The notes under the pieces are model-generated. The model worked only from the letters and a program-made list of their open reading frames with translations, ran no database searches and had not been told where the DNA came from. Shown one piece after another: positions 2,857-27,541 of a DNA stretch of 32,000 nucleotides (position 1 is the first letter of the stretch; every line of letters starts with the position of its first letter). The stretch comes from an uncultured Eubacteriales bacterium (GTDB taxonomy: Bacteria; Bacillota; Clostridia; Oscillospirales; Oscillospiraceae). A program made the position numbers and the translations under genes. The stretch is from positions 1 to 32,000 of the forward strand of contig ONGJ01000025.1 of NCBI GenBank assembly GCA_900317375.1, written 5' to 3'.

Positions 2857-2865
2857 GGTGCCGGA

Positions 2866-4410: not shown

Positions 4411-4417
4411 GGAGGCG

Positions 4418-5389: not shown

Positions 5390-5403
5390 CAGGGAGGAAC
5401 CAT

Positions 5404-6870
5404 ATGAAAAACTATGAATTCTGGTTTGTGGTAGGCAGTCAGTTTCTCTACGGGCCCGAGGTTCTGGAGACCGTAGAGGCCCGCGCCCGGGAGATGGCGC
5501 AGGAGCTGAGCCTGTCCCTGCCGTTTCCGCTTGTCTACAAGGTGACCGCCAAGACGAGCGATGAAATCACCCGTGTCGTGAAAGAGGCCAATTACCGCGA
5601 GGAGTGCGCCGGGATCATCACCTGGTGCCACACCTTCTCCCCGTCCAAAATGTGGCTCACCGGCCTTGATCTGCTGCAGAAGCCCTGGTGTCATCTGGCC
5701 ACGCAGTATAATCAGGCGATTCCGAACGAAGAGATCGACATGGACTTCATGAATCTGAACCAGGCCGCCCACGGCGACCGGGAACACGGATTCATCGGCG
5801 CCCGTCTGCGCAAGCCGCGCAAGATCATCGCAGGCTTCTGGACGGACGCTTCGGTCCGCAGCCGCCTCGGCGCCTGGATGCGCACGGCGGTCGGCGTCGC
5901 CGTCTCCCGCGAGATGCGCGTCATGCGCTTCGGCGACAACATGCGCGACGTGGCCGTCACCGAAGGCGACAAGATCGAGGCTCAGAAAAAGCTTGGCTGG
6001 CAGGTCAACACCTGGGCGGTCGGCGATCTCGTCAAAGAGATGAACGCCGTCACCGAGGCCGAAATTGATGCGCTTGTAAAAGAGTATGAGGCATCCTACG
6101 ACATCGCAACAGACAATACGGCTGCCATCCGCTATCAGGCCAAAGAAGAAATTGCCATCAAACGCATGATGGACCACGAGGGCTGCAAAGCCTTTGCCAA
6201 CACCTTCCAGGATCTCTACGGCATGGAGCAGCTCCCCGGCCTGGCCAGCCAGCACCTGATGGCGCTGGGCTACGGCTACGGCGGCGAGGGGGACTGGAAG
6301 GTCTCTGCCATGACAGCCATTCTGAAAGCGATGGGAGAAGGCGGAAACGGGGCCTCCGGTTTTATGGAGGATTATACCTACCACCTGATCGAGGGCCAGG
6401 AGTATTCCCTCGGCGCGCATATGCTCGAGGTCTGCCCGAGTCTTGCAGCCGACAAACCCCGGATCGAAACCCATCATCTGGGCATCGGCATGAACGAAAA
6501 AGACCCGGCACGTCTGGTCTTTGAGGGCAAGGCCGGCCCCGCCATCGTCGTAAGTCTCATTGACATGGGCGGCCGCCTGCGCCTGATCGTGCAGGATATC
6601 GAATGCGTAAAGCCCATTCTCCCGATGCCGAATCTTCCGGTTGCCCGCGTCATGTGGCGTGCCATGCCGGACCTGACCACCGGTGTGGAATGCTGGATCA
6701 CGGCAGGCGGCGCACACCATACCGTGCTGAGCTATGATGTCAGCGCGGAGATGATGCGCGACTGGGCGCGGATCATGGACATCGAGTTTGTCCATATCTC
6801 AAAAGATACGCTTCCCGAAAAGCTCGAGGAAGAGCTCCTGGTCAAGGATCTCATCTGGAAGCTCCGCTGA
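5404..6870 (+). CDS. araA: L-arabinose isomerase
   Basis: 488 aa. N-terminus MKNYEFWFVVGSQFLYGPEVLETV and overall length are characteristic of AraA. GGAGGA RBS upstream. Confidence 0.9.
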   Translation: MKNYEFWFVVGSQFLYGPEVLETVEARAREMAQELSLSLPFPLVYKVTAKTSDEITRVVKEANYREECAGIITWCHTFSPSKMWLTGLDLLQKPWCHLATQYNQAIPNEEIDMDFMNLNQAAHGDREHGFIGARLRKPRKIIAGFWTDASVRSRLGAWMRTAVGVAVSREMRVMRFGDNMRDVAVTEGDKIEAQKKLGWQVNTWAVGDLVKEMNAVTEAEIDALVKEYEASYDIATDNTAAIRYQAKEEIAIKRMMDHEGCKAFANTFQDLYGMEQLPGLASQHLMALGYGYGGEGDWKVSAMTAILKAMGEGGNGASGFMEDYTYHLIEGQEYSLGAHMLEVCPSLAADKPRIETHHLGIGMNEKDPARLVFEGKAGPAIVVSLIDMGGRLRLIVQDIECVKPILPMPNLPVARVMWRAMPDLTTGVECWITAGGAHHTVLSYDVSAEMMRDWARIMDIEFVHISKDTLPEKLEEELLVKDLIWKLR

Positions 6871-6903
6871 CGTCTCCGGCGGAATCCGCCGGCTGACCGC
6901 ACG

Positions 6904-6958
6904 ATCTGCCGACAGTTTTCTCTGCCCTTGAGGGAGAAAAACTGCCGGCAGATTTTTG
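6904..6958 (+). terminator. rho-independent terminator after araA
   Basis: Long imperfect hairpin ATCTGCCGACAGTTTTCTC...GAGAAAAACTGCCGGCAGAT followed by TTTTT. Confidence 0.55.
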
Positions 6959-6986
6959 ATCGCCGGAAGAAATAAAAAAAGCACCC

Positions 6987-7015
6987 TTGACAAATTCCGG
7001 TATTGGGACTATACT
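6987..7015 (+). promoter_or_regulatory. consensus-like promoter of tRNA-Pro
   Basis: TTGACA (6987-6992), 17 nt spacer, TATACT (7010-7015), about 22 nt upstream of the tRNA. Confidence 0.55.
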
Positions 7016-7037: not shown

Positions 7038-7113
7038 CCGGGTGTAGCGCAGATGGTAGCGCGCTTGAATGGGGTTCAAGAGGCCGCTGGTTCAAATCCA
7101 GTCACTCGGACCA
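7038..7113 (+). tRNA. tRNA-Pro (anticodon GGG)
   Basis: Hand-folded cloverleaf. Acceptor CCGGGTG/CACTCGG (one G-U pair), D stem GCGC/GCGC, anticodon stem CTTGA/TCAAG with loop ATGGGGT. T arm GCTGG-TTCAAAT-CCAGT, discriminator A, encoded CCA. Confidence 0.85.
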
Positions 7114-7155
7114 AAACGCTGAAATCGTTGGTGATTTCAGCGTTTTCTTTTTATT
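7069..7155 (+). repeat. attL: 87-bp direct repeat (tRNA-Pro anticodon loop to 3' end plus terminator)
   Basis: Identical over 87 nt to 19387-19473 by manual alignment. Confidence 0.85.
7116..7152 (+). terminator. rho-independent terminator of tRNA-Pro (inside the att repeat)
   Basis: ACGCTGAAATC-GTTGGT-GATTTCAGCGT followed by TTTCTTTTT. It is duplicated at 19434-19470. Confidence 0.6.
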
Positions 7156-7171: not shown

Positions 7172-7369
7172 AACGCTTGATTTTTGAAGAATGAAGGAGG
7201 AATCAAGCGTGCTGGGAAAAAACCGCATTCAAAAGAATCAAGCGTGTCGTTGGAAGAGTCAAATAATCCCATCTGTTCAGAAAAATCAATGTTTTATTAA
7301 AAAAACCTTTGAGGCAGAAGGGAGGATTCAAGCGTGTCAAATAGAAAACGGATTTTGGTCAATTCAAGC
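7172..7369 (+). promoter_or_regulatory. five copies of the motif AWTCAAGCGYG between attL and the integrase 5' end (candidate arm-type or regulatory sites)
   Basis: ACGCTTGATT (7172, inverted), AATCAAGCGTG (about 7200 and 7235), ATTCAAGCGTG (about 7325, containing the integrase GTG start), ATTCAAGCGCG (about 7359). The first two form a 10-bp hairpin around an AAGGAGG. Confidence 0.4.
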
Positions 7370-8293
7370 GCGTCTGTAAAGGAACAATTCAAGAGTTTCC
7401 TTATAGCAAAGAAGGCAAAAGGGCTTGCTGATAAGACTTTGGCTACTTACGAGCAACATCTTTCAGCGATTGGAAAACATCTTGATTTAATGACAAGCGT
7501 CGAAAATCTAAATACGAACGATTTGGAATCTATGGTTAGTTCCATGCGAGACGATGGGCTTTCTCCTAACACTATCAAAAGTTACACAAACACACTCAAA
7601 TCTTTTTTCTCCTGGTGCAATGAAGAAGGTATCACAAATTTAACAATCACTCGCTATAAAGCAGAAGAGACTGTAAAAGAAACATATACTGACAGCGAAT
7701 TGGAGATTTTGCTGAAAAAGCCAAATCTCCGCAAATGCAAGTTCTCCGAATATCGTAATTGGGTCATTATCTGCCTTTTGGTGAATAACGGTTGTCGCGC
7801 TGCATCTGTCCGTAATATCAAAATAAAGGACTTGGACCTTGAGGGACGAATTATTTATCTTCGGCACACTAAGAATAAGAAAACACAGATTATTCCTCTA
7901 TGTGATACTCTATGCGTAACATTAAAGGAATATCTGCGTATCCGAAACGGTGAAGCTGACGATTATCTGTTCCCAAATGAGTTTGGAGAGCAGCTTTCAG
8001 AAAATGGCCTGCGCTGCACCATAGCCAAGTATAACAAGAAGCGCGGCGTTCAGAAAACTAGTCTCCATATGTTCAGGCACACCTTTGCTAGAAAGTATCT
8101 TGTGGATTGTGGAGGAAATGCTTTTACGCTTCAACATTTACTTGGCCATTCAACCCTTGATATGACAAAGCATTACTGTGCCATTTTTGACGCTGATATC
8201 TCCAAGAATTTTGAAAACTACTCCCCTCTGGCACAAATACAGAATAATAAAAGTAAGATTTCTATGAAATGCAAAAAAACGAGAACAGTATGA
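7334..8293 (+). CDS. tyrosine-type site-specific integrase (phage integrase family)
   Basis: GTG start 8 nt after GGAGGA. SAM-like N-terminal domain. C-terminal catalytic motifs ...LHMFRHTFARKYL...LLGHSTLDMTKHY. TGA stop. Confidence 0.9.
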   Translation: MSNRKRILVNSSASVKEQFKSFLIAKKAKGLADKTLATYEQHLSAIGKHLDLMTSVENLNTNDLESMVSSMRDDGLSPNTIKSYTNTLKSFFSWCNEEGITNLTITRYKAEETVKETYTDSELEILLKKPNLRKCKFSEYRNWVIICLLVNNGCRAASVRNIKIKDLDLEGRIIYLRHTKNKKTQIIPLCDTLCVTLKEYLRIRNGEADDYLFPNEFGEQLSENGLRCTIAKYNKKRGVQKTSLHMFRHTFARKYLVDCGGNAFTLQHLLGHSTLDMTKHYCAIFDADISKNFENYSPLAQIQNNKSKISMKCKKTRTV

Positions 8294-8375: not shown

Positions 8376-9019
8376 AAGAAAACAAAAACCGCTCTGAACA
8401 TTTCCTGAAGCATTTTTAAATCCAGGAGACAGTCAGAGCGGTTGTTTATGAGGCAATGAGATGAAATGTGTATTTTCAAAACTCTTGAGCGGAAGTGAAA
8501 ACAGCGAAGCAGCCAGACTTTCAGCGCGACGACAGGTTATTTTTCTTCCTCGTCTTCGTTATCGTTTTGTATTCAATGGGACAAAAGGAAATCTCAGGAA
8601 ATAGGAATAAAAGTGAAGTCGTGGTCGTATGCGAAATCATCAGCAGTGCTTCCTGCCTTTCCAAATATAACAAGTTCCTGTATATCACCAAAAGCATTAC
8701 TATCAATCGTGGTTGTTTCATTTGGAATGTAGATATACCTGAGATTGGGACAGTTAGCAAATGCAAAAGGTCCGACATACTCTGTCTGCTCCGAAAGCTT
8801 CACATAGCGAAATGCTCCACCAGAAAAAGCGTCTTCACTTAATATCTTCAAGGATGCTGGCAAAAAAATGTCAGGAGTTGGAGTAATCAATGTGACACCT
8901 TTGTCAAATTCAATAATTGTAGTAGAACTAGTAATGATGGTTCCAGGTTCTTTGTAGCGAACAATTGACCCCGAAATTTCTGGCTGTGTGTTATGGACAA
9001 GTGCAAATAGCTTTGGGCA

Positions 9020-9800
9020 ATTACTAATGTCCAAGGTTTCAATATTATTAGAAAAACAGTATAACCGTCGCAGGAAGGTACAAAAACTGACATCTAGGCT
9101 TGTCAATTGATTTTCAACACAGGATAAAGAAGTCAGTGCACTATTATTGTTAATATTTAAAACTGTCAACTGATTATAATCACAGACTAATGAAGTTAGT
9201 GCAGTGTTGTTGCTGACATCTAGGCTTGTCAGTTGATTTTCCATACAATCCAGAGAGTTCAGAACAGTGTTATTGCTGACATCTAGGCTTGTCAGCTGAT
9301 TGTTATAACAATTCAGAGAAGTTAGTGCAGTGTTATTGCTGACATTCAGGCTTGTCAGTGGATTTTGTTATTGCTGACATTCAGGCTTGTCAGTGGATTT
9401 GAAGAACAATTAAGAGCCGTCAGTGCGGTGTTATTGCTGACATCTAAGCTTGTAAGTTGATTTCCAAAACAATCCAAGGAAGTCAGCACAGTATTGTTCC
9501 CGACATCTAGGTTTGTAAGTTGGTTGCTAGAACAATCCAAGGAAGTCAGCGCAGTATTATTCCTGACATCTAATCTTGTCAGTTGGTTATTAGGACAATA
9601 CAGAGAAATCAAAGCAGTGTTGTTGCTTACATCTAATCTTGTCAGCTGGTTCCTTGTACAATACAGGGCAGTCAAAGCAGTATTGTTGCTTACGTCTAAT
9701 CTTGTCAGTTGATTACCATAGCAATATAGAGAGGTCAGTGCAGTATTGTTGCTTACATCTAATCTTGTCAGCTGATTATTTCCACAAGATAAATTAGTTA
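9020..9800 (-). repeat. 66-bp in-frame tandem repeats encoding the LRR units
   Basis: Repeated ...GTTATTGCTGACATCTAGGCTTGTCAG... units are visible on the + strand. The period matches the 22-aa LRR. Confidence 0.8.
9331..9400. repeat. perfect 35-bp tandem duplication (9331-9365 = 9366-9400) causing the LRR frameshift
   Basis: TGTTATTGCTGACATTCAGGCTTGTCAGTGGATTT occurs twice back to back. 35 nt is not a multiple of 3, and a TGA follows immediately in the shifted frame. Confidence 0.9.
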
Positions 9801-10104
9801 ATGATGTAAAAAACTCGATTCCTTTAAGAGACGATAATCCACTTTTATTTAGGGAAATACTCCTGCTTCTAGAGATTTCAGTTTCACTCAGTTTTCCATT
9901 ACCGTCTCTGTCACAGTTCACTGACACATAATTACGGAAAACACTATCAGGGAAATTTGTCTCATTGATGTCAACATCATCAGCGAAAGCAGTGGGCGTA
10001 AGAATGAAAATGAATACCAGGCAAAACGACAATAGAACAAAAGGCAATGATTTCTTCATAATAAGACACCTCTGTTTTTGTTCTTAAAAATATCGATTTT
10101 TCAT

Positions 10105-10153: not shown

Positions 10154-10717
10154 TTAAAGCAATTCTGCGTGCCCTTCTATCGCTTTTTCTATTCTCTGTG
10201 GTTCAATTCCAATGTAACGCTGTGTAATGGCTGCGCTGCTGTGCTGTAAGAGTCTCTGAACAAGGGCAATGTCATAACCTTTTTTTTGGTAAATCTCTGT
10301 GGCATACCACTTCCTGAATGAATGTGTGCTGATTCCAGAATAGCCAAGGTATTCACAGACATGGGCTAGCTGTTTCTGAATGGCTCTTGTAGTAACAGGG
10401 AACAACAGCGCGTCACGCGCAATGCCGTTCCGCAGACAGTAATTTTCCATATATTGATAGATAACAAGGGGAACAGTGAAAACACGCTGTTTTCCTGTTT
10501 TCTGCTCAGTGATGGAAAGGCGATAGCGCCCACCATCGCTGACAATATCGCAGAGGCGCAGTCTGACAATATCGCTGATTCTGATCCCAAGGTTTCCTTC
10601 CAGCACAAGGGCTGTTGCTATGCGCTCATTGGGACGAAAGCCAATGCCCCCTTCCTTCATTGTCGTGATAATCTCCCTGTATTGTTCAGTGGTCAGGGCT
10701 GTCGTTTTCTTGTTCAT
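10154..10717 (-). CDS. small tyrosine recombinase (catalytic domain only, about 187 aa)
   Basis: ...ISTHSFRKWYATEIY...LLQHSSAAITQRYIG catalytic motifs. GGAGGA lies 6 nt before ATG 10717 (the ORF track starts at 10753). TAA stop. Confidence 0.8.
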   Translation of the reverse strand: MNKKTTALTTEQYREIITTMKEGGIGFRPNERIATALVLEGNLGIRISDIVRLRLCDIVSDGGRYRLSITEQKTGKQRVFTVPLVIYQYMENYCLRNGIARDALLFPVTTRAIQKQLAHVCEYLGYSGISTHSFRKWYATEIYQKKGYDIALVQRLLQHSSAAITQRYIGIEPQRIEKAIEGHAELL

Positions 10718-10844
10718 AGCATCCTCCAAAAGAAAAGAAAGTTCGTTTTTCAAGAAGGGAAAAGTTCATAAAATGCGTTCGTTTTGAAATATTCCCCTTT
10801 CCTATTGCCTTCTGGTGTTCGTATTTGCAGTCTTTTACGAACAT

Positions 10845-11495
10845 CTACGCTGCAATCACTAGTTGTTCGTTGCAATCCAGGCAGGCGATGTTCACAGCCT
10901 TTGTAGCGCGAACGCTCATACCGCAGCAAGGGCAGATGTATTTCCTTGTGCTGGAAGGTTTACGGCCTGCTGTCCCTGTAAAGGTCCCTGCGTGCGTTCC
11001 ACTGACACCAACGGCAATGCTCATCAAATCGTTTCTGTTCAGCCTGATTTCTGTCAGATTGTTCTCTACGCAGAATTCCAAGAGAGAATCAGAAGGAGAA
11101 GTAATGGACCAGCCATAGGAGCTGTGATGCTCTACGACCAAATCACAGGCTTCGGCAGCTGCCTTGAAGTTTTTATTGTGGTAGGTGTTCCCCCTGCTGC
11201 AATCCTTCACGCCGTTCTTATCGTTCCAGTAATGAACCATTTCGTGAAGAAGGGTAGCTACCACGCATTCAATAGGTCTGGACAGCGTGCCTGCGCCGAT
11301 GTTGATTTCCCGCATTCCCTGCTCGCCGTCAACGCTCCAAGCATCAAACAGGGTGTAATGGCCGTAAGCTTTGGGCGTGCTCTGAATCGTGATGACAGGC
11401 CTTGAAAGTGTATTTTCAAAGTATCTGGCATTCAGCAGGTCAAAGATGGTGTTCAGATAGGCAGCTGCTCTGTTGTAGGTGGTAAGCTGTTTCAT
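10845..11495 (-). CDS. SprT-like zinc-metalloprotease domain protein with C-terminal Cys4 zinc ribbon
   Basis: HEMVH motif in an SprT-like context (TLLHEMVHYWN). C-terminal CPCCG...CLDC. It ends in a TAG that behaves as a genuine stop. Confidence 0.7.
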   Translation of the reverse strand: MKQLTTYNRAAAYLNTIFDLLNARYFENTLSRPVITIQSTPKAYGHYTLFDAWSVDGEQGMREINIGAGTLSRPIECVVATLLHEMVHYWNDKNGVKDCSRGNTYHNKNFKAAAEACDLVVEHHSSYGWSITSPSDSLLEFCVENNLTEIRLNRNDLMSIAVGVSGTHAGTFTGTAGRKPSSTRKYICPCCGMSVRATKAVNIACLDCNEQLVIAA

Positions 11496-12602: not shown

Positions 12603-12791
12603 TTACCATTCCCATTCTTCTATCTCATCCCAGTCAATGCTTCTGTCGTTCAAATCAATATAATGCCAGCCTAGCCATTCATCAAAGAAATAATTCATCA
12701 TCTGACTGGTGACTTCCTTCATCACGTTATAAAGGAATTCTTCAATCCAGGACTATTCTCGTTTCTTTTTCTTTTTCTCTTCGTCTGTCAT
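12603..12791 (-). CDS. hypothetical small acidic protein, 62 codons with one in-frame TAG (codon 13)
   Basis: AAGAGG lies 7 nt before ATG 12791. Translation MTDEEKKKKKRE[TAG]SWIEEFLYNVMKEVTSQMMNYFFDEWLGWHYIDLNDRSIDWDEIEEWEW, TAA stop. TAG at 12753-12755. Confidence 0.4.
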
Positions 12792-12802
12792 TGCTTAGCC
12801 TC

Positions 12803-12988
12803 TTACTGGTTATAATGATTGCGCAGATGCCTTTCCAGTATCTCTCTGTCTTTTGGACTCTCTTCAGCCCAAAGAATCTGATAGGGTTTGACATCTTCCT
12901 GAAGATGAACGAAATGGTCATAGTAGAGAACTGGTCCCTCTGTCAGCTAATCCAGAACGCTGCTCTTATGTTTCTATATTGGATTCAT
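12803..12988 (-). CDS. hypothetical small protein, 61 codons with two in-frame TAG
   Basis: The AGGTGA RBS overlaps the upstream TGA stop. Translation MNPI[TAG]KHKSSVLD[TAG]LTEGPVLYYDHFVHLQEDVKPYQILWAEESPKDREILERHLRNHYNQ, TAA stop. TAGs at 12974-12976 and 12947-12949. No alternative start after the TAGs. Confidence 0.35.
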
Positions 12989-12997
12989 ATTCTTTTT

Positions 12998-13357
12998 TCA
13001 CCTACTTCGTCTTTTTTTTATTTTTTCGCAATACGCTCTATAGTTGTCTTGCTAGCTCAAGAAACGCAAATTGCTGGCTTTGTTATTGCTGACATCACCG
13101 TCAATGTGGTCCACTGTGTTCTTGTGCTATGGATCATCGTTATCACAGAACGCCGCAGCCACTAAACGACTGACAAGAAAATGTCTGCTTACTCCGTTAT
13201 GGGACAAACAGACACGGTAATATCCTTTATTATTAGGGAACGCTGTCAGAATCTTTTCTTTCTTGTGTTTCAGGGATTTGATTCTGCCAAGGGAACTAAC
13301 ATAGTATTTTTCATAACCGTCTATCGGTTTCCAGATTTCTTTTTCTATTGGAATCAT
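12998..13357 (-). CDS. NUMOD4 + HNH (HNH_3-type) homing-endonuclease-like protein, frame intact but with two in-frame TAG
   Basis: MIPIEKEIWKPIDGYEKYYVSSLGRIKS...GYYRVCLSHNGVSRHFLVSRLVAAAFCDNDDP[TAG]HKNTVDHIDGDVSNNKASNLRFLS[TAG]QDNYRAYCEKIKKRRSR, TGA stop. The ORF track reports only the first 76 aa. TAGs at 13127-13129 and 13052-13054. Confidence 0.7.
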
Positions 13358-13445
13358 CTCCTTTTCTATTGTTTGAGAAATAGGAAAGAAGAATTAAACA
13401 AGTTTGACAAGAAGCAGAGTACAAAAAAAGAGAGGATTTGTAATT

Positions 13446-13925
13446 ATGAAGGCAAAAGCGATCGCAAAAGAATACGGTTTTGACCCAGACAGATTTCAGT
13501 CTTTTGTTTGGCGTCAATCAGAAATCCCAACAAAAGGATTTAGTGGAGATTCTATTGATGATGCAGATATACCCAAGATGGTAGAACTGTATAAAAAAAC
13601 AGAGGGGGAAGTTCATCGAATTGAAGAAATAAAAGAAAAAGACCTTCAATCGGCTTTGCCAAGAATAAAGTATACAAGTATCATTAACTCCTTTGTCAGT
13701 GTAGAAGGTGTAGGAGCGTATACAAACTATGTTTACTACAGTGTTTTGATCGTCTTTGATGATGGAACAGCTAAAATCGTAGAAGGAAACAGCGACACAA
13801 TTGCTCCTCTGCTGGTTTATTTACGCACTCCTGTAGATGAAATGAAAGAAATAAAACAGATTATCGCGCATTTGTCTTCTGATATTAATACTATCAAAGG
13901 GGTGTTAGATGAGAAGATAAAATAA
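13446..13925 (+). CDS. hypothetical protein (159 aa), the only plus-strand gene in this part of the island
   Basis: AGAGAGGA RBS before ATG 13446 (the ORF track starts at 13404). TAA stop. No family recognised. Confidence 0.55.
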   Translation: MKAKAIAKEYGFDPDRFQSFVWRQSEIPTKGFSGDSIDDADIPKMVELYKKTEGEVHRIEEIKEKDLQSALPRIKYTSIINSFVSVEGVGAYTNYVYYSVLIVFDDGTAKIVEGNSDTIAPLLVYLRTPVDEMKEIKQIIAHLSSDINTIKGVLDEKIK

Positions 13926-14055
13926 TGCTGATGTGAAGTCTTTGGGACCTTTTAAGAGATGATACAATTATAAAGGTTCATTTGTGATAATTCTGGATCT
14001 ATCGATTTCCATGATGAAAACAGATTGGATCGTTCATAATGCCCATATAAGATTT

Positions 14056-14100
14056 GATCCTCAAGGTCTTCTATTTAATGGAAAACCTTGAGGATCTTTT
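14056..14100 (+). terminator. hairpin terminator between convergent genes
   Basis: GATCCTCAAGGT-N17-ACCTTGAGGATC followed by TTTT. Confidence 0.5.
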
Positions 14101-14509
14101 ATTCTGCACTTGCCAGAATTTCTTCCAGCGTTACTGTTAGCGCATGAGAGTTATAATCATACTTGCGCCAGTTAGATTCCTTTGGAATCTGTGTGTTCAG
14201 TGCTGGTAGATACTGCCTGATATAACGCCCTTCAGCTTCTCCTATTTCTTCTACTACATCGGAAAGCTTGGACGAAGTCGCATAGCAAACCACATCAAAC
14301 TGAACAGCGTGCCCCTTCTGTTTTGCTTCTGCCAGGATCTGATACTTGTGACTTTTCGGCTGTCGGAAAGCAAAGTAGTGTTCTGCCAGCCTCCACAGCA
14401 TATCTTTGCTCTTGCCTATGTATACAATTATCCCATCGATTGTAATCTTATATATACCAGCGTGCTGGAAGCGCGCTGCAAACCCTCTGCGCTATAGCAT
14501 CTTGTACAT
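14099..14509 (-). CDS. GIY-YIG nuclease domain protein with an in-frame TAG at codon 6
   Basis: MYKML[TAG]RRGFAARFQHAGIYKITIDGIIVYIGKSKDMLWRLAEH...EAEGRYIRQYLPALNTQ. GIY-N9-YIG, the conserved R, and E...N are all present. The ORF-track ATG (14401) lies after the YIG motif. TAG at 14492-14494. TAA stop. Confidence 0.7.
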
Positions 14510-14522
14510 ATTTTCTACGTAA

Positions 14523-15266
14523 TTAGCCAATTCTCTCTTCCTTTCCAGAAATATAACGTGTCAGTTCATACACTTCCGCAAGGCTGCCATTCAGATTCCA
14601 GGCTGTGAAGTGGAAAGTCTTGCAGGAGTAATAACAGCAATGGTCCCTGTCCCATAGAAAATTAACCACATTTTTCCATGCTTCACTTCTGGCCTCATCA
14701 TAGGAAAGCTTTCTGCTCCCCTTCATAATCTGCCAAGTGATTTCTTCTATTAGCGCTGAACGCTCTTTGAAATAGGTTTGCGCTTCTTCCTCTGTAACGA
14801 GCTGGCGCTTCTTGAATCCTGCTTCGTCAATGTAGGTTTTCCAGTAACTACCTTCGCTGCCCTTGCACATAATGCCCTGATCTATGAGTTTCTTGCACCA
14901 TCTGCTTAAAGTACGGCTTGTATAGAATCTGCCTGAGAACTTCCAATATTCCTCTTCGCGAACCTTCCATGGCATACAGTCAAAACCAGGAACATCATTA
15001 AACGCAGTGACGAAGCAGGCGAACGAGTACATATCAACCTGAATATCAACTTGGAACTGTCGGATCAGGATTTCCTGTAATCTTTCTTCTGGTAGATCAG
15101 GAACATGGGTAATTGCTACACCGTTGCGCATCCAGTCATATCCATAGCCCCACTTCGTCAGAACAGACTCTACATTTCTTTTAAAGTGTTTTACATCAGC
15201 TAAGCTCACGCTTGTGATTTCAGCAATTTCCTTGCGGCTATAGAACCGCATTTCTAACTATTTCAT
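14523..15266 (-). CDS. hypothetical protein with HTH-like segments (possible DNA-binding or replication function); possible in-frame TAG at codon 3
   Basis: 242-aa ORF from ATG 15251 has no RBS. GAAAGG lies 8 nt before ATG 15266, giving MK[TAG]LEMRFYSRKEIAEITSVSLADVKHFKRN... TAG at 15258-15260. TAA stop. Confidence 0.6.
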
Positions 15267-15343
15267 AATAAGAACCTTTCGAGTATCATAATACTTTTTA
15301 CAACTTTGATTTGATTTCTTTACAAGAATAAAGCAACTATAGA

Positions 15344-15421
15344 TTTTGAATATACACTTTCAATCCCCCCAAAGGTTTTCCAGATATACTTTTATAAATG
15401 TGAAATCCTTTGGAGGGGATT
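15344..15421 (-). promoter_or_regulatory. repeated intergenic cassette A: stem-loop (AATCCCCCCAAAGG/CCTTTGGAGGGGATT) plus palindromic promoter-like box TTGAAAGTGTATATTCAAAA
   Basis: The 34-nt stretch 15344-15377 is identical to 15761-15794. On the minus strand the hairpin is followed by TTGAAA, 16 nt spacer, TATAGT. Confidence 0.5.
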
Positions 15422-15426
15422 ATCAG

Positions 15427-15735
15427 TTAACCAATATATCCGTTATTCAGTACTGCTTTTGCATCTGAATAGAACTCCCAATAGGTTAAATCAAAAACCA
15501 ACCAAATGATATAATCATGAATAAGAATTGAAACATCATCATAATCGTTCATATCATATTCAATATTTACAGGATGGGCACACACGTAGTCTTTCATTTG
15601 AAGTAGTTCAGCATTAGTAAACTCATCGCAAAACTCTTCCCACTCCTTTTCGTTTCTATTAAGGATTTTTTGATTCTGGGAGATACTAAGGTCAAGATTT
15701 TCTTCGATTTTCTTTTCATCACAGACAACAATCAT
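15427..15735 (-). CDS. hypothetical acidic protein (102 aa)
   Basis: ORF with GAAAGGAA RBS and TAA stop. No family recognised. Confidence 0.55.
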   Translation of the reverse strand: MIVVCDEKKIEENLDLSISQNQKILNRNEKEWEEFCDEFTNAELLQMKDYVCAHPVNIEYDMNDYDDVSILIHDYIIWLVFDLTYWEFYSDAKAVLNNGYIG

Positions 15736-15760
15736 TTTATAATTCCTTTCAGATTATTAT

Positions 15761-15837
15761 TTTTGAATATACACTTTCAATCCCCCCAAAGGTTGTCCTT
15801 TCTAATCTATAATTGTCAGGAAAACGTTTGGGGGGAT
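15761..15837 (-). promoter_or_regulatory. repeated intergenic cassette B (stem-loop ATCCCCCCAAAGGTT/AACGTTTGGGGGGAT plus TTGAAAGTGTATATTCAAAA box)
   Basis: Same 34-nt core as cassette A. On the minus strand the box is followed by an ATAAT-type -10. Confidence 0.5.
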
Positions 15838-15845
15838 CTATACAA

Positions 15846-16070
15846 TTAGCAAGCTCTTGGATCAAGCCCCAGAGAATGACGAATGAATCTTGCTGGGATT
15901 ACTTTATGCATATTACATTCATCACAGCAACGACCTTCTTTCGTGATTGGAGCTGGATTATTGCCATATCCAATAAATGTAGTACCGCAGATACAGCATT
16001 TCTGCTTACGGTTGGGATAAGGATTAGTGACTGCGAGAATATAAGCTGGATTAATAAATTCATTTTTCAT
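15846..16070 (-). CDS. small Cys-rich zinc-ribbon protein (74 aa)
   Basis: CCICG...CCDEC cysteine pairs. AAGGAG RBS. TAA stop. Confidence 0.6.
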   Translation of the reverse strand: MKNEFINPAYILAVTNPYPNRKQKCCICGTTFIGYGNNPAPITKEGRCCDECNMHKVIPARFIRHSLGLDPRAC

Positions 16071-16110
16071 TTTAATAAACTCCTTATAATTATTATTTTT
16101 TTAATTTTTT

Positions 16111-16164
16111 CTCCAAAGGTTTTCATACTTATTCTATTACAGGAAAGGAAAACGTTTGGGGGGG
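16111..16164 (-). promoter_or_regulatory. repeated intergenic stem-loop C (CTCCAAAGGTTTTC/GAAAACGTTTGGGGGGG)
   Basis: Third copy of the CCAAAGG/CCTTTGG hairpin family, without the TTGAAAGTG box. Confidence 0.45.
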
Positions 16165-16167
16165 TTG

Positions 16168-16446
16168 TTATATAGCGTACAGGATTTCATATAACCTGCG
16201 TACTTCGGCATCCATTCTATCGTGGTATTCTGCTTCATACAGAAGGAACAGAATATAGTGGTAGATAATCTGTTCCCTGTAATCTGGCTGTGAAGGGTTG
16301 TACTTCTCTATGGGATAGTGGTTTTTTATCATCACTTGGCGCATCGCGCAGATTTCCTGATTGGTGATTGCGCATGCAAGACAATGAAAATTCTATTTGT
16401 CCCAAGACAAGATTTTTTGTTTACTTGATATCAGCAGAGAATTCAT
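16168..16446 (-). CDS. hypothetical protein, 92 codons with an in-frame TAG at codon 18
   Basis: Strong RBS AAGGGGGTGA before ATG 16446. Translation MNSLLISSKQKILSWDK[TAG]NFHCLACAITNQEICAMRQVMIKNHYPIEKYNPSQPDYREQIIYHYILFLLYEAEYHDRMDAEVRRLYEILYAI, TAA stop. TAG at 16393-16395. Alternative reading: a 17-aa leader plus an internal start at ATG 16344. Confidence 0.45.
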
Positions 16447-16713: not shown

Positions 16714-17199
16714 TTATGCAGTCTTTTTGTTTGCATTTTCCAGATAATCTGAAAAGCTAATCACATCAGGGAGCTTTTCAGTATCCAGATAGAACAGAGG
16801 CTCTTCTCTGAACTTAGGAAACTGAGCCATAAACCACTGAGCAACAGGCGCATAGGGTGAAAGGCATATTGCTTCGGCCTTTTCACGCAGTTTGTGATAC
16901 TCATCCAGATACTTCTGGCTGTTATCAAGCGCATTCATAAATCTCTCCATGCGCTCATAGGAAAGGTTTTTGGTAGGATAGTAGGAGGTTCTCTTACCAT
17001 CCTGCCCCTTCCCCTTGTAGGAAGTGGGTGAAGTGCGTGTGCGATTCACAATTTCCAGATTGGGAAAATCATGCAGGAACTGACGTACAAGTTTATATTC
17101 AGCAGATCCAGGGTTGTTGGCTGCATCAGCAAAAGCAGCAGTCAGAGTGAGAGTCTGGTGGGCCAGGTCCAGCTTATAGCCCTTCATTTTTGTAGCCAT
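16714..17199 (-). CDS. hypothetical protein (161 aa), weak N-terminal paralog of the upstream gene
   Basis: MATKMKGYKLDLAHQTLTLTAAFADAANN... GGGGG RBS before ATG 17199 (the track starts at 17214). TAA stop. Confidence 0.6.
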   Translation of the reverse strand: MATKMKGYKLDLAHQTLTLTAAFADAANNPGSAEYKLVRQFLHDFPNLEIVNRTRTSPTSYKGKGQDGKRTSYYPTKNLSYERMERFMNALDNSQKYLDEYHKLREKAEAICLSPYAPVAQWFMAQFPKFREEPLFYLDTEKLPDVISFSDYLENANKKTA

Positions 17200-17227
17200 T
17201 TTAAATACCCCCATTTATGTTTTTTGC

Positions 17228-17731
17228 TTAAAGATTCACAACAGGCTTGAGTTCATTCTCTTCGGCTTCGCCGATGACAGTATTATTATCTGTCGTAGGC
17301 TTAGCTTTAGCACAAGTTGCGCTGTTGAGCATCTGCTTATAGCGATAATCATCAACACAACTCTTGGCTTCAGCATAGTTGAAGCTTTTGTAAGCATCAA
17401 AAAGCACGCGCTTGACAAGTGGGTATTTGCTCTCACGCATCTTCCCAGCATAATCGATTACTTCATTCACTGTTTCCAGTGTGATGTAATCTTTGACTGC
17501 CGTAAGGTAGTCCACGATAAAGGGAATGTCCATCCCCTTATAGGTCTGCTTGGGCTTAGCAGGCTTCTCAGGCTGCTTGATTTCGATACCATAGGTAGGG
17601 TGCTTCTCCATCAAAGCGATGAGTTCGTCATAGACAGGGCCATAACCCTTGCTAGCTTTGTCAAAGCTGTTCTGGGTTCCGACGATGGTCTTGTTGGCAA
17701 AGTTAAGGGTAAAGCGTGCATTCTTAGACAT
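17228..17731 (-). CDS. hypothetical protein (167 aa)
   Basis: MSKNARFTLNFANKTIVGTQNSFDKASKGYG... GGAG lies 8 nt before ATG 17731 (the track starts at 17743). TAA stop. Confidence 0.6.
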   Translation of the reverse strand: MSKNARFTLNFANKTIVGTQNSFDKASKGYGPVYDELIALMEKHPTYGIEIKQPEKPAKPKQTYKGMDIPFIVDYLTAVKDYITLETVNEVIDYAGKMRESKYPLVKRVLFDAYKSFNYAEAKSCVDDYRYKQMLNSATCAKAKPTTDNNTVIGEAEENELKPVVNL

Positions 17732-17910
17732 ATTAGTCTCCATTCTCTGTTTTTCTGAGTTTATCAGCTCTCATTTTTTTATTCTTGGAAGGGGTTTTCT
17801 TTTCTTTGTTTCCCCCTCCTCTTTACAATTATATTTTACCAGATTTGAAAAATATTACAATATGTTCAGGCGTTTCAGCAGTACATAAGCGGCCTTCTGA
17901 CTTTATTCTA

Positions 17911-17955: not shown

Positions 17956-18990
17956 TTACTGATAATGCGCTTCTATTCTTTTGATGTAGTCTTTGAATCT
18001 CCCTGCTGTTTCTGGTGGGTCTACAATGACTATTTTTTCACCTAGACCACATACCCAACCATAGAAGTTTTCGCTTTCCACGATGAATGTTTTGATGCTG
18101 AAATGCTTGTCATCTATTGGAGTGTATACTGTGTCAGGTCCTTTGGGAAAGCGTTCCAGCATTGCATCCAATAGGGAGTTTTCAAATTGAAGAGTAATAC
18201 GTCCTGCTTTGCCACCGATGAACATTCCAAAAGTCTGTTTCGCATAATCGCTAATCCCCAACCGTTTGAACTTTTCTTCCCCTTCTCTTGGCTCATCCGT
18301 AATCTTTACATCATCCATCCTGTCTATTCTGTATGCCCTGATTTGGTGGTAGGTATCATCATAGCCTATCAGGTAGTGGTTTCCATCTGAAAGGACAACA
18401 TTGAAAGGGCTGACAACATACCGTTTTCCTTTCCTGCGGTTTTCCGTTTGAGTGATATTCACTGGACTATGGCGAGTATAGAGAAAAGATATTTTCTGAT
18501 TATTTCTTATAGCGAGTTTTATTCTACGAAGGTATTTTAACATCTTCCTTTCCGTGTATTTCGGTCGTTCTGCTACGATGTACTCGCTTTTCAGGGTGTC
18601 TGCTTGATACTTGCTACACAGTTTTTTAAGTTTTTCAATAAGTTCTTCTGCTTCTGGTCGTGATATGAAATTAGCGGAGGCGACACATTCTGCTATCGTT
18701 TCCAAGTCTTCAAATGGCAGAAAGCGAGTGCCCAAATAGATAGGCTTGCCTTTTCCCCCTTGGACATCCAACACAGCGTCAAACGCTGCGTCTCTTCCTC
18801 CACGCAAAAGGTCAATGTCTCTGCGGATAGAATGATTTTCTGCTTCAATTCCTTTGCTATTCAGGTATTGCTCTACATCCTTTAACAGAACGCCGTGAAG
18901 CATATTGCCTTTTTCATCGGCGTCAGTTTCTCGCATAAGATAATCGGCGATGTAAAAGATTTTCAGTTTCTGACGGTCGCTCTTTGGCAT
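17956..18990 (-). CDS. WYL-domain transcriptional regulator (wHTH-WYL-C-terminal extension, YafY/BrxR-like architecture)
   Basis: 344 aa. N-terminal HTH-like region. Central ...YVVSPFNVVLSDGNHYLIGYDDTYHQIRAYRIDRM... typical of WYL domains. GGGGGA RBS. TAA stop. Confidence 0.8.
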   Translation of the reverse strand: MPKSDRQKLKIFYIADYLMRETDADEKGNMLHGVLLKDVEQYLNSKGIEAENHSIRRDIDLLRGGRDAAFDAVLDVQGGKGKPIYLGTRFLPFEDLETIAECVASANFISRPEAEELIEKLKKLCSKYQADTLKSEYIVAERPKYTERKMLKYLRRIKLAIRNNQKISFLYTRHSPVNITQTENRRKGKRYVVSPFNVVLSDGNHYLIGYDDTYHQIRAYRIDRMDDVKITDEPREGEEKFKRLGISDYAKQTFGMFIGGKAGRITLQFENSLLDAMLERFPKGPDTVYTPIDDKHFSIKTFIVESENFYGWVCGLGEKIVIVDPPETAGRFKDYIKRIEAHYQ

Positions 18991-19386: not shown

Positions 19387-19473
19387 ATGGGGTTCAAGAG
19401 GCCGCTGGTTCAAATCCAGTCACTCGGACCAAAACGCTGAAATCGTTGGTGATTTCAGCGTTTTCTTTTTATT
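19387..19473 (+). repeat. attR: 87-bp direct repeat (partial tRNA-Pro 3' half plus terminator)
   Basis: Identical to 7069-7155. It is preceded (about 19355-19386) by a degenerate tRNA 5'-half-like sequence that cannot form an acceptor stem. Confidence 0.85.
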
Positions 19474-19600
19474 CTCTTCTGAAAAGCAGCACGCTTGAAT
19501 TTTCTACTTGAAGGGAGATTCAAGCGTGCTGTTTTTTTGTAAAGTTATGCTTGATTTTATTATACTTTTCGGTATAATAAAACGGAAGGATGTGATTTGC

Positions 19601-20998
19601 TTGGAGAGATTTATCGACCGCGAGCAGGAAATGGAGACTCTGCAGAGCGAATATGAGCGTAAAGGGAGTTCCCTCGTGATCCTTTACGGGCGTCGGCGCG
19701 CCGGAAAAACCACACTGATCTCGGAGTTTATCAAGGACAAGAACGCCCTTTTCTTCCTGGCCAGCGAGGAATCTGAATCGCAGAACCGAAACGCCTTTAA
19801 GGAGAAGGCTGCGGACTTCATCGGCAGCTCCCTGCTGCATGAGGCCAGCGTCTCCACCTGGGACGCGATCTTCAAAGCAATCATGGAGCACAGCTTTGAA
19901 ACGAAACCCATCATCGTGATCGACGAGTTTCAGTATATCGGCAAGTCCAACCCGGCTTTTCCCTCAGTGTTCCAGCGCATATGGGAAGAGCAGCTCAGGA
20001 ACCGCGCAGTTATGGTAATTCTCTGCGGCTCGCTGGTCTCCATGATGGAGTCACAGACCCTGGCCTACAACAGCCCGCTCTATGGGCGGCGCACGGCGCA
20101 GATCCGGCTGGGGCAGATCCCGTTCCGCTATTACGGCAAGTTCTTCCCCGACCGCAGCCGGAAAGAGCTCATTGAGATGTACGCCATCACCGGCGGCGTC
20201 CCCAAATACGTGGAGATATTCTCCGAGAGCAAGGACATCTACCGCGCCATCGCGCGCAACGTCCTCAATCGCTCCGGCTATCTATACGATGAGCCGCACT
20301 TCCTGCTGCAGCAGGAAGTCAGCGAGATCGGCAGCTACTTCTCCGTCATCAGGGCCATTGCCGCAGGCAATCACAAGCTGGCGGCCATTTCCTCCGCCCT
20401 GGAGGTCAAGGCCACCAGTCTGACCAAATATCTGAAAACGCTGATTGATCTGGATATTCTGGAGCGCGAGATACCCATCACCGAGGAGAACCCGGAGAAG
20501 AGCAAGCGCGGCCTTTACAGGATCAAGGACAATTATATCCGCTTCTGGTTTGCCTTCGTCTATCCCAACATGAGCTTTATCGAGAGCGGCAACAGTCAGA
20601 TCGTTCTGGACAAGATCCGCAAGGGCCTGGTCACCAGTCATATCGCCTTCGTCTATGAGGATGTGTGCCGGGAAAAAATGTGGGATCTGAATGCAGACGA
20701 CGCCTGGCCTTTCCACTTCTCCAGGATCGGACGCTATTGGGACGCCGCTACCGAGATCGACATCACTGCCCTCGACCCGGAGGGACACAACCTCATTCTC
20801 GGCGAGTGCAGGTATTGGCAGGAGCCGGTGGGTGCGAACATCCTGCGCGAGCTGGAGCAGAAAGCCGAACACGTCTCCTGGAACCAGGATCATCGACAGA
20901 CCTGGTTTGTACTGTTCAGTATGGGTGGTTTTACTGATGAACTGAAGCAGCTTGCTGAAGGCCGCGCCGACTTACTCCTGGTGGACGACCGCAAGTAA
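19601..20998 (+). CDS. AAA-type ATPase with C-terminal DUF234-like domain
   Basis: Walker A GRRRAGKTT, Walker B IIVIDEFQY. A TTG start at 19601, 10 nt after GGAAGGA, gives MERFIDREQEMETL. The ORF-track start at 19508 lies in AT-rich non-coding DNA. Confidence 0.75.
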   Translation: MERFIDREQEMETLQSEYERKGSSLVILYGRRRAGKTTLISEFIKDKNALFFLASEESESQNRNAFKEKAADFIGSSLLHEASVSTWDAIFKAIMEHSFETKPIIVIDEFQYIGKSNPAFPSVFQRIWEEQLRNRAVMVILCGSLVSMMESQTLAYNSPLYGRRTAQIRLGQIPFRYYGKFFPDRSRKELIEMYAITGGVPKYVEIFSESKDIYRAIARNVLNRSGYLYDEPHFLLQQEVSEIGSYFSVIRAIAAGNHKLAAISSALEVKATSLTKYLKTLIDLDILEREIPITEENPEKSKRGLYRIKDNYIRFWFAFVYPNMSFIESGNSQIVLDKIRKGLVTSHIAFVYEDVCREKMWDLNADDAWPFHFSRIGRYWDAATEIDITALDPEGHNLILGECRYWQEPVGANILRELEQKAEHVSWNQDHRQTWFVLFSMGGFTDELKQLAEGRADLLLVDDRK

Positions 20999-21040
20999 GC
21001 CGGCACGCGAACGCATTGCAGGCGTACATAGTCCAGCCCA

Positions 21041-21997
21041 TCATTCTTCCAAATCCGGAACCGTCCCAAGCAGCTCTCGAACGATAGGAAGCGATTCCTC
21101 CGGATGCAATAATTCCTGCCGATTTTCGGCGGATGAGCGTGTGCTTTGCAGCAAAGAGGGATGCTGCCTGCGATATTCTTTGGGCGTGCAGCCGTATTTT
21201 TCGCGAAAAGCCTTCGTCATGTACCGCAGATCCGAAAAGCCGCTTTCAATCGCAATATCCAGAATGGTTTTACTCGTCGTATTCAGAAGCTCCAGGGCAT
21301 GTTCAAAGCGCTTTTCCTTCAGGTACTCCTGGAAACTGATTCCCAGGATATTCTTGAACAGATGAGAAACATAAGGCATCGTCAGCCCGTACTGCCGCGC
21401 GATGTCCTCCAGCAGCAGCTTCTGCTGGAAATGTCGGTCAATCTCGTCGAGAATGGATACCATGCGGTCAGTCTGCCTTCGCATCATTTCATAATCATTC
21501 TGCGTCAGCACTTGCCTGGGAAGATTCCGGTCAAGCAGGAGAAGGAGTCTGGACAGGAGGTAGAAGCAGGTCATTGCGTCCTCTCCCCCGGCCGAAAGGT
21601 AATGGACTGCCAGATCCAGAACCGCTTCCCGCAGCTCCCGGGCCTTCTCGCTGCCCTTTGGGAAAAACGGCTCCAGCGGCGGTTTGACCTGGAAGCAATG
21701 CATGGATGCGTCCGGAATAAACGGCTCCAGAAATCTGGGTGAAATCTGAACGGCAAGTACGAGCGTTCCTTCCCCGACGGAAGTGAACTCATGCGGTTTC
21801 ATGGAATTCACCAGATAAAACTCGTCTTTTTCAAGCCGGTATCCCTGGCCGGCATGGCGGAGAGTCAGGCGTCCTTCCAGAATCAGGCCAAGCTCCAGCT
21901 CGCGGTGAAGGTGGGGACAGCGGGACTGAAGCCGAACAAGAAAAAGGTTGAGGCAGGGATAGCTGCCGGTCGGAATCATCTCATATTCATGCGGCAT
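21041..21997 (-). CDS. AraC-family transcriptional regulator (cupin sensor plus AraC HTH)
   Basis: C-terminal ...LLLEDIARQYGLTMPYVSHLFKNILGISFQEYLKEKRFEHALELL...GFSDLRYMTKAFREKYGCTPKEYRR. Divergent from the sugar cluster. Confidence 0.85.
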   Translation of the reverse strand: MPHEYEMIPTGSYPCLNLFLVRLQSRCPHLHRELELGLILEGRLTLRHAGQGYRLEKDEFYLVNSMKPHEFTSVGEGTLVLAVQISPRFLEPFIPDASMHCFQVKPPLEPFFPKGSEKARELREAVLDLAVHYLSAGGEDAMTCFYLLSRLLLLLDRNLPRQVLTQNDYEMMRRQTDRMVSILDEIDRHFQQKLLLEDIARQYGLTMPYVSHLFKNILGISFQEYLKEKRFEHALELLNTTSKTILDIAIESGFSDLRYMTKAFREKYGCTPKEYRRQHPSLLQSTRSSAENRQELLHPEESLPIVRELLGTVPDLEE

Positions 21998-22188
21998 ACA
22001 GAAACGCCTCCTTCCCGGCCATCTTATACCGCAGATACGCGGCCGTCAAGAAGGATCGCAAACTTGTGCTGTAATTTGCCGCAAATTCATACGAGACAGC
22101 GGGAGATCGGCATGTTATCATGAACGCATAAAGCAGAACACTGCATCTATCGATATTTTCTATACTTTTTATCTGAGGAGGATGATTC

Positions 22189-23223: not shown

Positions 23224-23282
23224 TACCAAAGCTGAATCGGGGCTGCCGGGAGCGACAGCCCTGACTGTTTAAGGAGAACAGG

Positions 23283-24392: not shown

Positions 24393-24407
24393 CTCGGAGG
24401 ATTCATC

Positions 24408-25253: not shown

Positions 25254-25279
25254 AAAGCGGCTGCTCGCAGGGTGCGGAC

Positions 25280-25322
25280 GAAAAAAGCAAGGACTGCATC
25301 CAATACAAATGCAGTCCTTGCT
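25280..25322 (-). terminator. rho-independent terminator for minus-strand transcription (after the micropeptide ORFs); also closes the aldolase operon
   Basis: 14-bp stem AGCAAGGACTGCAT / ATGCAGTCCTTGCT. The T-run is present on the minus strand only. Confidence 0.55.
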
Positions 25323-25337
25323 ACGTATTATGATCGG

Positions 25338-25385
25338 TCATTTCCCTTCGCGGTGAGAGAAGCTTTCATAGAACTCTTTCAGCAT
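25338..25385 (-). CDS. candidate micropeptide gene, copy 1 (MLKEFYESFSHREGK)
   Basis: It differs from the 3' 15 codons of copy 2 by six synonymous and zero non-synonymous changes. A TTG two codons upstream is an alternative start. Confidence 0.35.
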   Translation of the reverse strand: MLKEFYESFSHREGK

Positions 25386-25435
25386 TTTCAACGCCTTCTT
25401 TCTGTTCTGTTATGGTTGTCCGGCAGCCGTCCCGG

Positions 25436-25519: not shown

Positions 25520-25671
25520 CTCTGTCCTGTTCCCTCAGGACGATTGTATGATAACACAGAGATTTCGAAAAAGGAAATACATATAATAGTCTGGTAATTA
25601 TACGAAAAGGATATCTTGTCCTGCCATCCCGGGATTCGCGCCGGAGGAGGCGTTCTGCCAGCGTTCAGCCG

Positions 25672-27535: not shown

Positions 27536-27541
27536 AACAGG

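Follow-up and report, generated by a model that had tools for sequence, protein, structure and literature searches.

Does a TAG that stands between the start of a nuclease gene and its catalytic motifs end translation, or is it read as an amino acid? The question is raised by a gene on the minus strand of the window, by which we mean the whole stretch of 32,000 nucleotides (nt) analysed here (contig ONGJ01000025.1 of assembly GCA_900317375.1, from an uncultured Eubacteriales bacterium of the Oscillospiraceae). The gene encodes a predicted GIY-YIG nuclease and lies on a 12.3-kb integrative element. An earlier note on this DNA, made from the letters alone, had left two alternatives, namely that the TAG is decoded or that a single nonsense mutation has killed the gene, and of these it is decoding that the comparison of homologues supports. 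We consider it likely that the product is a nuclease of the endonuclease II (EndoII) type and that the TAG at codon 13 is maintained and decoded, most likely as glutamine (Gln), by suppression in trans, with recoded phages as the probable source.

Reading frame and start codon of the nuclease gene

Translation of the minus strand from 14533 to 14099 (...ELANYVENMYKML*RRGFAARFQHAGIYKITIDGIIVYIGKSKDMLWRLAEH...EAEGRYIRQYLPALNTQIPKE...ILASAE*, with asterisks for stop codons here and below) gave a gene similar to that of T4 endonuclease II, with 143 codons plus stop (14099..14530, minus strand), whose codon 13 is TAG (14492-14494) and whose terminal stop is TAA (14099-14101). The translation bears out much of what had been claimed of this frame: the GIY and YIG motifs, present as AGIYKI and VYIGKS, are reached solely by reading through the TAG, and the R, E and N residues that had been named are all there. 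The first standard-code ATG (14399..14401, minus strand) was said to lie beyond YIG, and it does lie 3′ of both motifs; the standard-code open reading frame (ORF) is 14099..14401, encoding 100 amino acids (aa) of which the first is the M of MLWRL. Likewise, the in-frame codons from TAG to GIY (CGC AGA GGG TTT GCA GCG CGC TTC CAG CAC GCT) include no ATG, GTG or TTG, as had been stated. The upstream reading MYKML followed by TAG held in part: the TAG is in frame, but the likely start is a TTG at 14528-14530 (minus strand) rather than the ATG at 14509. This TTG, codon 1 of the gene, overlaps the stop of the upstream gene and is preceded by a Shine-Dalgarno sequence of good quality (GGAAAGGAAGAGAGAA followed by TTG). 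The start column in the nine distinct sequences of the subclade holds ATG in four, TTG in four and GTG in one. Since the nuclease region is 99.6-100% identical across three independent metagenome assemblies, sequencing error is excluded as the origin of the TAG.

Conservation of the TAG and selection across the family

Codon-level claims in this study rest on DNA that we translated ourselves and not on database proteins. A scan with one genome per species gave 53 further nuclease loci, and loci were found in Oscillospiraceae, Faecousia, Acutalibacteraceae, Ructibacterium, Pseudoflavonifractor, Oscillibacter and a few Lachnospiraceae. All nine distinct sequences of the subclade (9/9) have TAG at codon 13; they share 68-93% aa identity. 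Over the first 42 codons, up to the internal ATG, the proportion of synonymous differences (pS) among these nine sequences is 0.67 and that of nonsynonymous differences (pN) is 0.07 (pN/pS 0.10), whilst the remainder of the gene is less tightly constrained (pN/pS 0.26). It had been envisaged that homologues might start with an ATG directly before GIY, or that the codons upstream might not be conserved; instead, starts lie some 20 codons upstream in every subclade member, and the low ratio from start to internal ATG speaks for conservation.

Across the family, tblastn over 67 loci and 8,346 aligned aa found 97 in-frame TAGs, one TAA and no TGA. Between one and three in-frame TAGs are carried by 50 of the 57 aligned copies, amounting to 95 TAGs in approximately 25 distinct columns, and none of the 57 translated copies (0/57) requires a frameshift. 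In the first tblastn set, 80 of 82 stops were TAG (binomial p 4.5e-30), where family codon usage leads one to expect a TAG share of 0.39-0.47 under random nonsense mutation; this p value is overstated, as the copies are phylogenetically related, and the roughly 25 distinct columns make the same point. At the commonest TAG (RVA*HY, 29 sequences) the ratio of nonsynonymous to synonymous substitution rates (dN/dS) is 0.154 upstream and 0.161 downstream. Because constraint is equal on both sides, the part after this apparent stop is as much protein as the part before it. Taken together, these comparisons support the TAG as an ancestral and selectively maintained codon, one that would be decoded when the nuclease is made.

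A pseudogene, in which a recent single nonsense mutation has left the remainder still intact-looking, might account for the 100-aa fragment returned by standard-code gene callers and for a Pfam score under threshold (see below). However, it would have to be reconciled with a TAG present in all nine relatives down to 68% identity and embedded in codons under purifying selection, with a family in which TAG outnumbers all other stops by 97 to one without frameshifts, with equal constraint on either side of a shared TAG, and with an element that is intact and mobile. The killing of the gene by a single nonsense mutation, as had been proposed, is contradicted by these data, and we hold the pseudogene to be very improbable.

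Fold and identity of the nuclease

An AlphaFold2 (AF2) model of the post-TAG product was obtained with a predicted local distance difference test score (pLDDT) of 93.5 and a predicted template modelling score (pTM) of 0.87. Foldseek matched it with probability 1.0 to the UvrC N-terminal domain (1YCZ), T4 EndoII (2WSH) and I-TevI (1MK0). AGIYKI and VYIGKS occupy model strands E12-18 and E21-28 (residues 12-28), N-terminal to the M of MLWRL, and R34, E87 and N99 (numbered on the post-TAG product) do not vary across an alignment of 48 sequences. A family profile searched against the PDB found T4 EndoII 2WSH at E 3.3e-7 over positions 23-114, a match that spans GIY, YIG, the Arg, the catalytic Glu position and the N-x-Q motif; the family Glu aligns with the E118 position of T4 EndoII (A in the 2WSH mutant). 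The nearest cultured-phage relatives are denA genes of T4-like Aeromonas phages (31% identity, E 3e-4, tblastn), and PHROG 1111 ('endonuclease') was matched by the read-through nuclease at E 1.8e-9. The Pfam family to which the earlier note had looked, PF01541, does match the read-through product (E 1.3e-3), but at 19.5 bits against a gathering score of 22.6; a precomputed PF01541 match is present in many of the nuclease homologues.

No second Pfam domain was found in the 143-aa nuclease and the model consists of one domain. A free-standing homing endonuclease of the I-TevI type was considered and rejected, as the protein is without a C-terminal NUMOD, IENR1 or helix-turn-helix (HTH) DNA-binding domain. 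It is because of this single domain without a DNA-binding appendage that the resemblance is to EndoII over a homing endonuclease, and by profile and model the product is a predicted single-domain GIY-YIG nuclease of the T4 endonuclease II type.

The model also bears on the idea that the functional product is the 100-aa C-terminal fragment from ATG 14401, or that the gene makes a split protein of two polypeptides. The methionine at 14401 is conserved in the subclade, as one would wish for an internal start. Yet the 100-aa product cannot be a nuclease because both catalytic strands precede the internal ATG, and a fragment without the GIY and YIG strands would be left with part of a confidently predicted single domain. 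Moreover, a Shine-Dalgarno sequence is not evident before 14401, and most family members have their TAG 3′ of this methionine (RVA*HY in 29/57), where an internal start cannot rescue them. We find this explanation scarcely credible.

Probable residue decoded at TAG and context of the TAG sites

In the nearest TAG-free relative, 30 of the 95 TAG sites correspond to CAG/CAA and 32 to GAG/GAA. Gln makes up 3% of family residues, and CAG/CAA are consequently enriched ten-fold at TAG sites. Three other TAG columns of the subclade alternate between TAG and CAG/CAA, and one of these three corresponds to the Gln of LNTQIPK, which is invariant in 55/56 other sequences and aligns with the Q in NIQ of T4 EndoII. 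From these alignments, the residue decoded at TAG is probably Gln.

A shared sequence context around the 95 TAG sites was not found. The base that follows the in-frame TAG (95 sites, L004-L060) is G in 3 cases, C in 45, A in 27 and T in 20; G is found at approximately 32% of first codon positions and 3/95 is thus a depletion at the +4 position, whilst the excess of C is due in part to one recurrent site that precedes His. An RNA recoding signal 3′ of the TAG in the window was sought and discarded, there being no structure (z 0.26).

Other TAG-bearing and TAG-free genes

The second nuclease of the element, a NUMOD4-HNH endonuclease, is encoded at 12998..13357 (minus strand) by 119 codons that end in TGA and include two in-frame TAGs (13127-13129 and 13052-13054, minus strand). 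Under the standard code this gene yields a 76-aa NUMOD4 fragment. Read through, it gives a product whose end-to-end match to PHROG HNH families extends over both TAGs (E 6e-36) and whose match to phage HNH proteins has 97-100% coverage. In the DNA itself, the second TAG site is CAG/Gln in four related loci (L069, L070, L063 and L006); L069 keeps TAG at the first, which is either TAG or Glu among relatives, and a third site is TAG in relatives and Gln in one standard-coded homologue.

Three further genes on the minus strand are shortened by standard-code ORF calling. A 92-codon gene (16168..16446), of which the standard-code annotation is a 58-aa fragment, has TAG as codon 18 (16393-16395); a strong Shine-Dalgarno sequence precedes its ATG at 16446, and both the TAG and the N-terminal peptide are kept in L069. 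A 62-codon gene (12603..12791) has TAG as codon 13 (12753-12755), with the same TAG in L069, and the TAGs of both these genes are conserved in a relative with 90% DNA identity. The third, of 247 codons (14523..15266), is directly upstream of the nuclease gene and overlaps its 5′ end. Its start may be ATG 15266, in which case codon 3 is TAG (15258-15260), or ATG 15251; the corresponding N-termini read MK*LEMRF in L069 and ML*LEQRF in L070, with no internal M. These TAG-bearing genes of the window are all on the minus strand within 12603-16446, a module of 3.8 kb. In related elements, genes of 84 and 199 aa just 5′ of the nuclease also have TAG at Gln positions (for example TFPN*R versus TFPNQR). 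The ratio TAG/(TAG+Gln) is 0.27 for GIY-YIG, 0.20 for HNH and 0.21 for the 84-aa gene, whereas int1, int2, SprT, p117, p166, p171, WYL and the resolvase have no TAG in approximately 27,800 aligned aa with 1,026 Gln. As a way to collect every TAG-bearing family, clustering stop-to-stop ORFs all against all was given up because conserved ORFs in the wrong frame or antisense confounded it, and tblastn with defined proteins took its place.

This distribution bears on whether the TAG is simply a leaky stop that acts as an attenuator, with near-cognate tRNAs of the host reading UAG rarely and a toxic nuclease being made at trace level with no phage involved. The depletion of G at +4 could reflect selection for weak termination, the fact that nuclease genes are the most TAG-rich is consistent with control of toxicity, and no suppressor was found in the window, the island or the related loci scanned. 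Against this, many copies have two or three TAGs in 140 codons and the HNH gene has two, and low readthrough multiplied in this way would give approximately no protein. Neither a common context of the sites nor an RNA structure after the window TAG was found, and the sharp split between TAG-free and TAG-rich genes in an operon-like array suggests a switch and not a dimmer. We consider a leaky stop unlikely.

The SprT-like gene (10845..11495, minus strand) ends in a conserved TAG, and the spacer 3′ of this TAG is not conserved. A read-through fusion of the SprT-like protein with the integrase beside it (window 10154-11495, minus strand) was rejected because the two are out of frame with each other in the window and the spacer lacks conservation. 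As a separate observation, the SprT-like gene and the catalytic-domain-only integrase are in frame through TAG in L006 (14906-16363) and L063 (4769-6082). Elsewhere, L071 encodes at 2324-3496 a DEAD/ResIII helicase with four in-frame TAGs.

In the TAG-bearing module, a G/C-run motif of approximately 20 nt (GGAAAACSTTTGGGGGG and its complement) occurs in four copies (15363-15384, 15780-15799, 15818-15837 and 16143-16167), which occupy gaps between the small genes. The second and third copies pair as a hairpin, with a loop of 18 nt, that lies between the genes of 74 and 102 aa; the copies may be terminators or attenuators.

The integrative element and its relatives

The element is bounded by a perfect direct repeat of 87 nt. 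The left copy, attL (7069..7155, plus strand), spans the 3′ portion of tRNA-Pro(GGG) (7038-7113) together with its terminator, and the right copy, attR, lies at 19387..19473 (plus strand), the spacing of 12,318 bp being the length of the element. G+C content is 36-44% at 7-20 kb versus 55-68% in the host. Seven of eight conspecific contigs (L075-L077 and L079-L082) have an empty site at which the flanks are joined exactly, and in the eighth (L078) the tRNA-Pro site is occupied by another island, one with IS21 elements. The element is shown to be intact and mobile.

Its genes encode a tyrosine integrase (7334..8293, plus strand), a leucine-rich repeat (LRR)/internalin-like cargo protein, a catalytic-domain-only integrase, the SprT-like protein, an XRE-type HTH protein, the two nucleases, several small proteins, two paralogues of 166 and 171 aa (16714..17743, minus strand) and a WYL/WCX-domain regulator (17956..18990, minus strand). 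The regulator gene stands at the head of the minus-strand gene array and the paralogues are found in most related elements; the tyrosine integrase, the paralogues and the regulator have no in-frame TAG. Synteny is conserved in the related elements, which are 8-9.5 kb long and adjoin various tRNA genes; they were bounded by host genes from ORF listings, and the Pfam scan of them covered L036 alone.

Capsid, tail, terminase and lysis genes were not detected by Pfam, PHROGs or NCBIfam among the element proteins scanned, a few small ORFs lying outside the scan. Pfam, PHROGs, NCBIfam and PADLOC recognised little among the island proteins beyond the integrase, WYL, HTH, SprT-like and HNH proteins. 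The island DNA had no match in plasmid collections.

Several features of the cargo and flanks were noted in passing. The LRR/internalin-like cargo gene (8594-10059, minus strand) contains eight copies of a 63-nt repeat at 9024-9840; it is present as ORFs of 216 and 234 aa in the window and as a single protein of 518 or 476 aa in the near-identical L001 and L002, the split being due to variation in repeat number or a frameshift. Low-GC cargo genes lie between the resolvase and the WYL regulator in L036 (12393-13781, 462 aa), where the gene product is an AAA ATPase by Pfam, and in L046 (12719-14305, 528 aa). A DUF234/ATPase_2 gene at 19508-20998 (plus strand) matches the PADLOC candidate defence family PDC-S27 (E 1.7e-48); it is a host gene and not part of the island, because it lies just beyond attR and is found at the empty site as well.

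A proposed mechanism and its alternatives

In a host that uses the standard code, release factor 1 would stop translation at codon 13 after 12 residues, and no nuclease would be made. Were UAG suppressed, the module would yield the 143-residue nuclease, the HNH nuclease and two or three small proteins together. Two translational states are proposed because the TAG-free genes of the element separate cleanly from those of the TAG-bearing module: the former would work in the ordinary state and the latter in the second. As the element encodes no decoder of its own, suppression would be in trans. The source of the suppressor would be a phage of Oscillospiraceae in which TAG is recoded to Gln, and the function would then be code-gated and phage-dependent, resembling that of a satellite or a defence system. 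Expression of the nuclease is presumably off in the uninfected cell.

We also weighed suppression without a phage, whether by a tRNA with the anticodon CUA (tRNA-CUA) or a pyrrolysine system of the host, or by an element protein that antagonises release factor 1. UAG would in that case be read when the element is induced, with no phage needed. Several conserved element proteins have no assigned role, and the SprT-like metalloprotease or the 166/171-aa paralogues would be candidates for such an antagonist. Furthermore, TAG ends none of approximately 27 host genes (window 1-7000 and 19500-32000, together with L075); the 17 genes of L075 stop at TAA (10) or TGA (7). However, a sample of about 27 genes is too small to call TAG depletion, and apparently real genes of related genomes end in TAG, as does the SprT-like gene; because of those genes in related genomes, host-wide reassignment of TAG was rejected. 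A tRNA-CUA was absent from the approximately 0.7 Mb of related loci scanned, pyl genes were not seen in the loci examined, and the replacement of an invariant Gln by TAG fits Gln and not pyrrolysine. A suppressor from the host or the element itself is, in our judgement, quite improbable.

Several observations weigh against decoding by a phage-borne suppressor, and are gathered here. Neither a suppressor nor a sequence link to a phage was recovered: ARAGORN (window and 58 related loci) and Rfam (island) found only ordinary tRNAs and no tRNA-CUA, the island DNA matched none of 50,697 phage records, and the matches in IMG/VR (three to GIY-YIG, one to HNH and two to the 199-aa family) include none in an evidently recoded phage. 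Gating is not obligatory, because 7/57 family members have no TAG. TAG is also a working stop within the element, because the SprT-like gene ends in a conserved TAG that is followed by an unconserved spacer. In the column of codon 13, the residue of TAG-free relatives from beyond the subclade is K or R instead of Q, and for this reason Gln is deduced from the whole family and not from codon 13 itself, the decoding of which we infer from the comparison of sequences. Finally, one apparent line of support was withdrawn. Among the proteins that an initial search yielded, many homologues seemed 'full-length', showing Q at the TAG position, and several seemed 'truncated' at 100 aa. A closer inspection revealed that the DNA of the 'intact' homologues also has TAG, the database having translated those contigs under genetic code 15. 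Since the underlying DNA reads TAG, these Q residues are not evidence, and they were dropped as an artefact of code-15 gene calling. The nuclease family occurs under both code-15 and standard-code calls in P0001, P0002, P0123 and P0136 (loci L071, L063, L069 and L070).

With decoding in trans still the reading that we favour, a more tentative extension is that the island senses the genetic code, its amber-locked nucleases and their partners being opened by the suppressor of a recoded phage in the service of a satellite or of a defence against recoded phages; we think this possible but doubtful. The DNA-cutting module would then be switched on exactly when a recoded phage alters the code of the cell. 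The island would thereby act as a satellite that parasitises the phage or as a defence that destroys the phage or the cell.

Should the gating prove real, non-phage mobile elements would be making use of the alternative genetic code of phages, or would be tuned to it, a dependency or form of sensing between elements that would be new in kind. It would also offer a testable system for the source of amber suppression in these bacteria. A literature search found no paper on amber-gated islands or satellites. The recoding signature itself is on widespread small chromosomal islands of Oscillospiraceae and relatives, where it is concentrated on nuclease genes. With gating, standard-code annotation would systematically truncate such genes and code-15 callers would silently 'repair' them, by which protein databases are already confused.

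Comparison with known systems

Recoding of stop codons has been described in gut phages, in which its presumed purpose is the timing of late genes. Topaz prophages are recoded from TAG to Gln, occur in Oscillospiraceae at tRNA genes and have integrases that avoid TAG (Borges et al., bioRxiv 10.1101/2021.08.26.457843). The element resembles these code-15 phages in having TAGs at Gln-like positions of conserved genes under purifying selection, in its TAG-free integrase and lysogeny genes (int1, int2, WYL and resolvase, with 0 TAG) and in its integration beside tRNA genes of standard-code Oscillospiraceae. The logic is alike too, in that recoded genes would stay silent until the code is switched. 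Topaz is approximately 22 kb long, against 12.3 kb for the window element and 8-9.5 kb for its relatives. Unlike code-15 phages, the element is without a suppressor tRNA and without recognised genes for capsid, tail or lysis; few of its genes have TAG, mainly those for nucleases, and TAG is still the stop of one gene.

In the Agate phages, which are TGA-recoded, it is a homing endonuclease that is preferentially recoded, and this has been proposed to delay production of the nuclease until the code changes (Borges et al., bioRxiv 10.1101/2021.08.26.457843). The likeness to this group I intron homing endonuclease is that a nuclease has been singled out for in-frame stops. In Agate, however, TGA is read as Trp and the nuclease gene lies inside a phage intron, whereas the TAG genes described here are free-standing on a non-phage island, and the GIY-YIG protein of the window is without a recognisable DNA-binding (homing) domain.

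A second group of relevance is formed by phage satellites such as phage-inducible chromosomal islands (PICIs) and PICI-like elements (PLEs), which are small helper-dependent islands with an integrase, att sites at tRNA genes, regulators and no virion genes. The element and its relatives share with them a size of 8-12 kb, this same set of features and a variable cargo slot (LRR protein, AAA ATPase), and the proposed logic of reliance on a factor supplied by a phage is common to both. Unlike PICI-like satellites, the element has no recognised packaging or capsid-redirecting genes, and a helper was not found. Our literature search found no description of satellites that are dependent through the genetic code.

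Organisms that use pyrrolysine decode UAG ambiguously and tolerate in-frame UAG in genes. The nuclease family differs from these in that TAG alternates with CAG/CAA and replaces an invariant Gln, and the TAG of the window has no downstream RNA structure (z 0.26).

With T4 endonuclease II (DenA) the nuclease shares a single GIY-YIG domain of approximately 140 residues, supported by profile and structural matches. The similarity is distant, and EndoII belongs to a lytic phage, whereas the window gene is on a chromosomal island and has an in-frame TAG. Thus, although the carrier is not a code-15 phage, being small, virion-free, suppressor-free and partly recoded, its coding signature is that of the code-15 phages.

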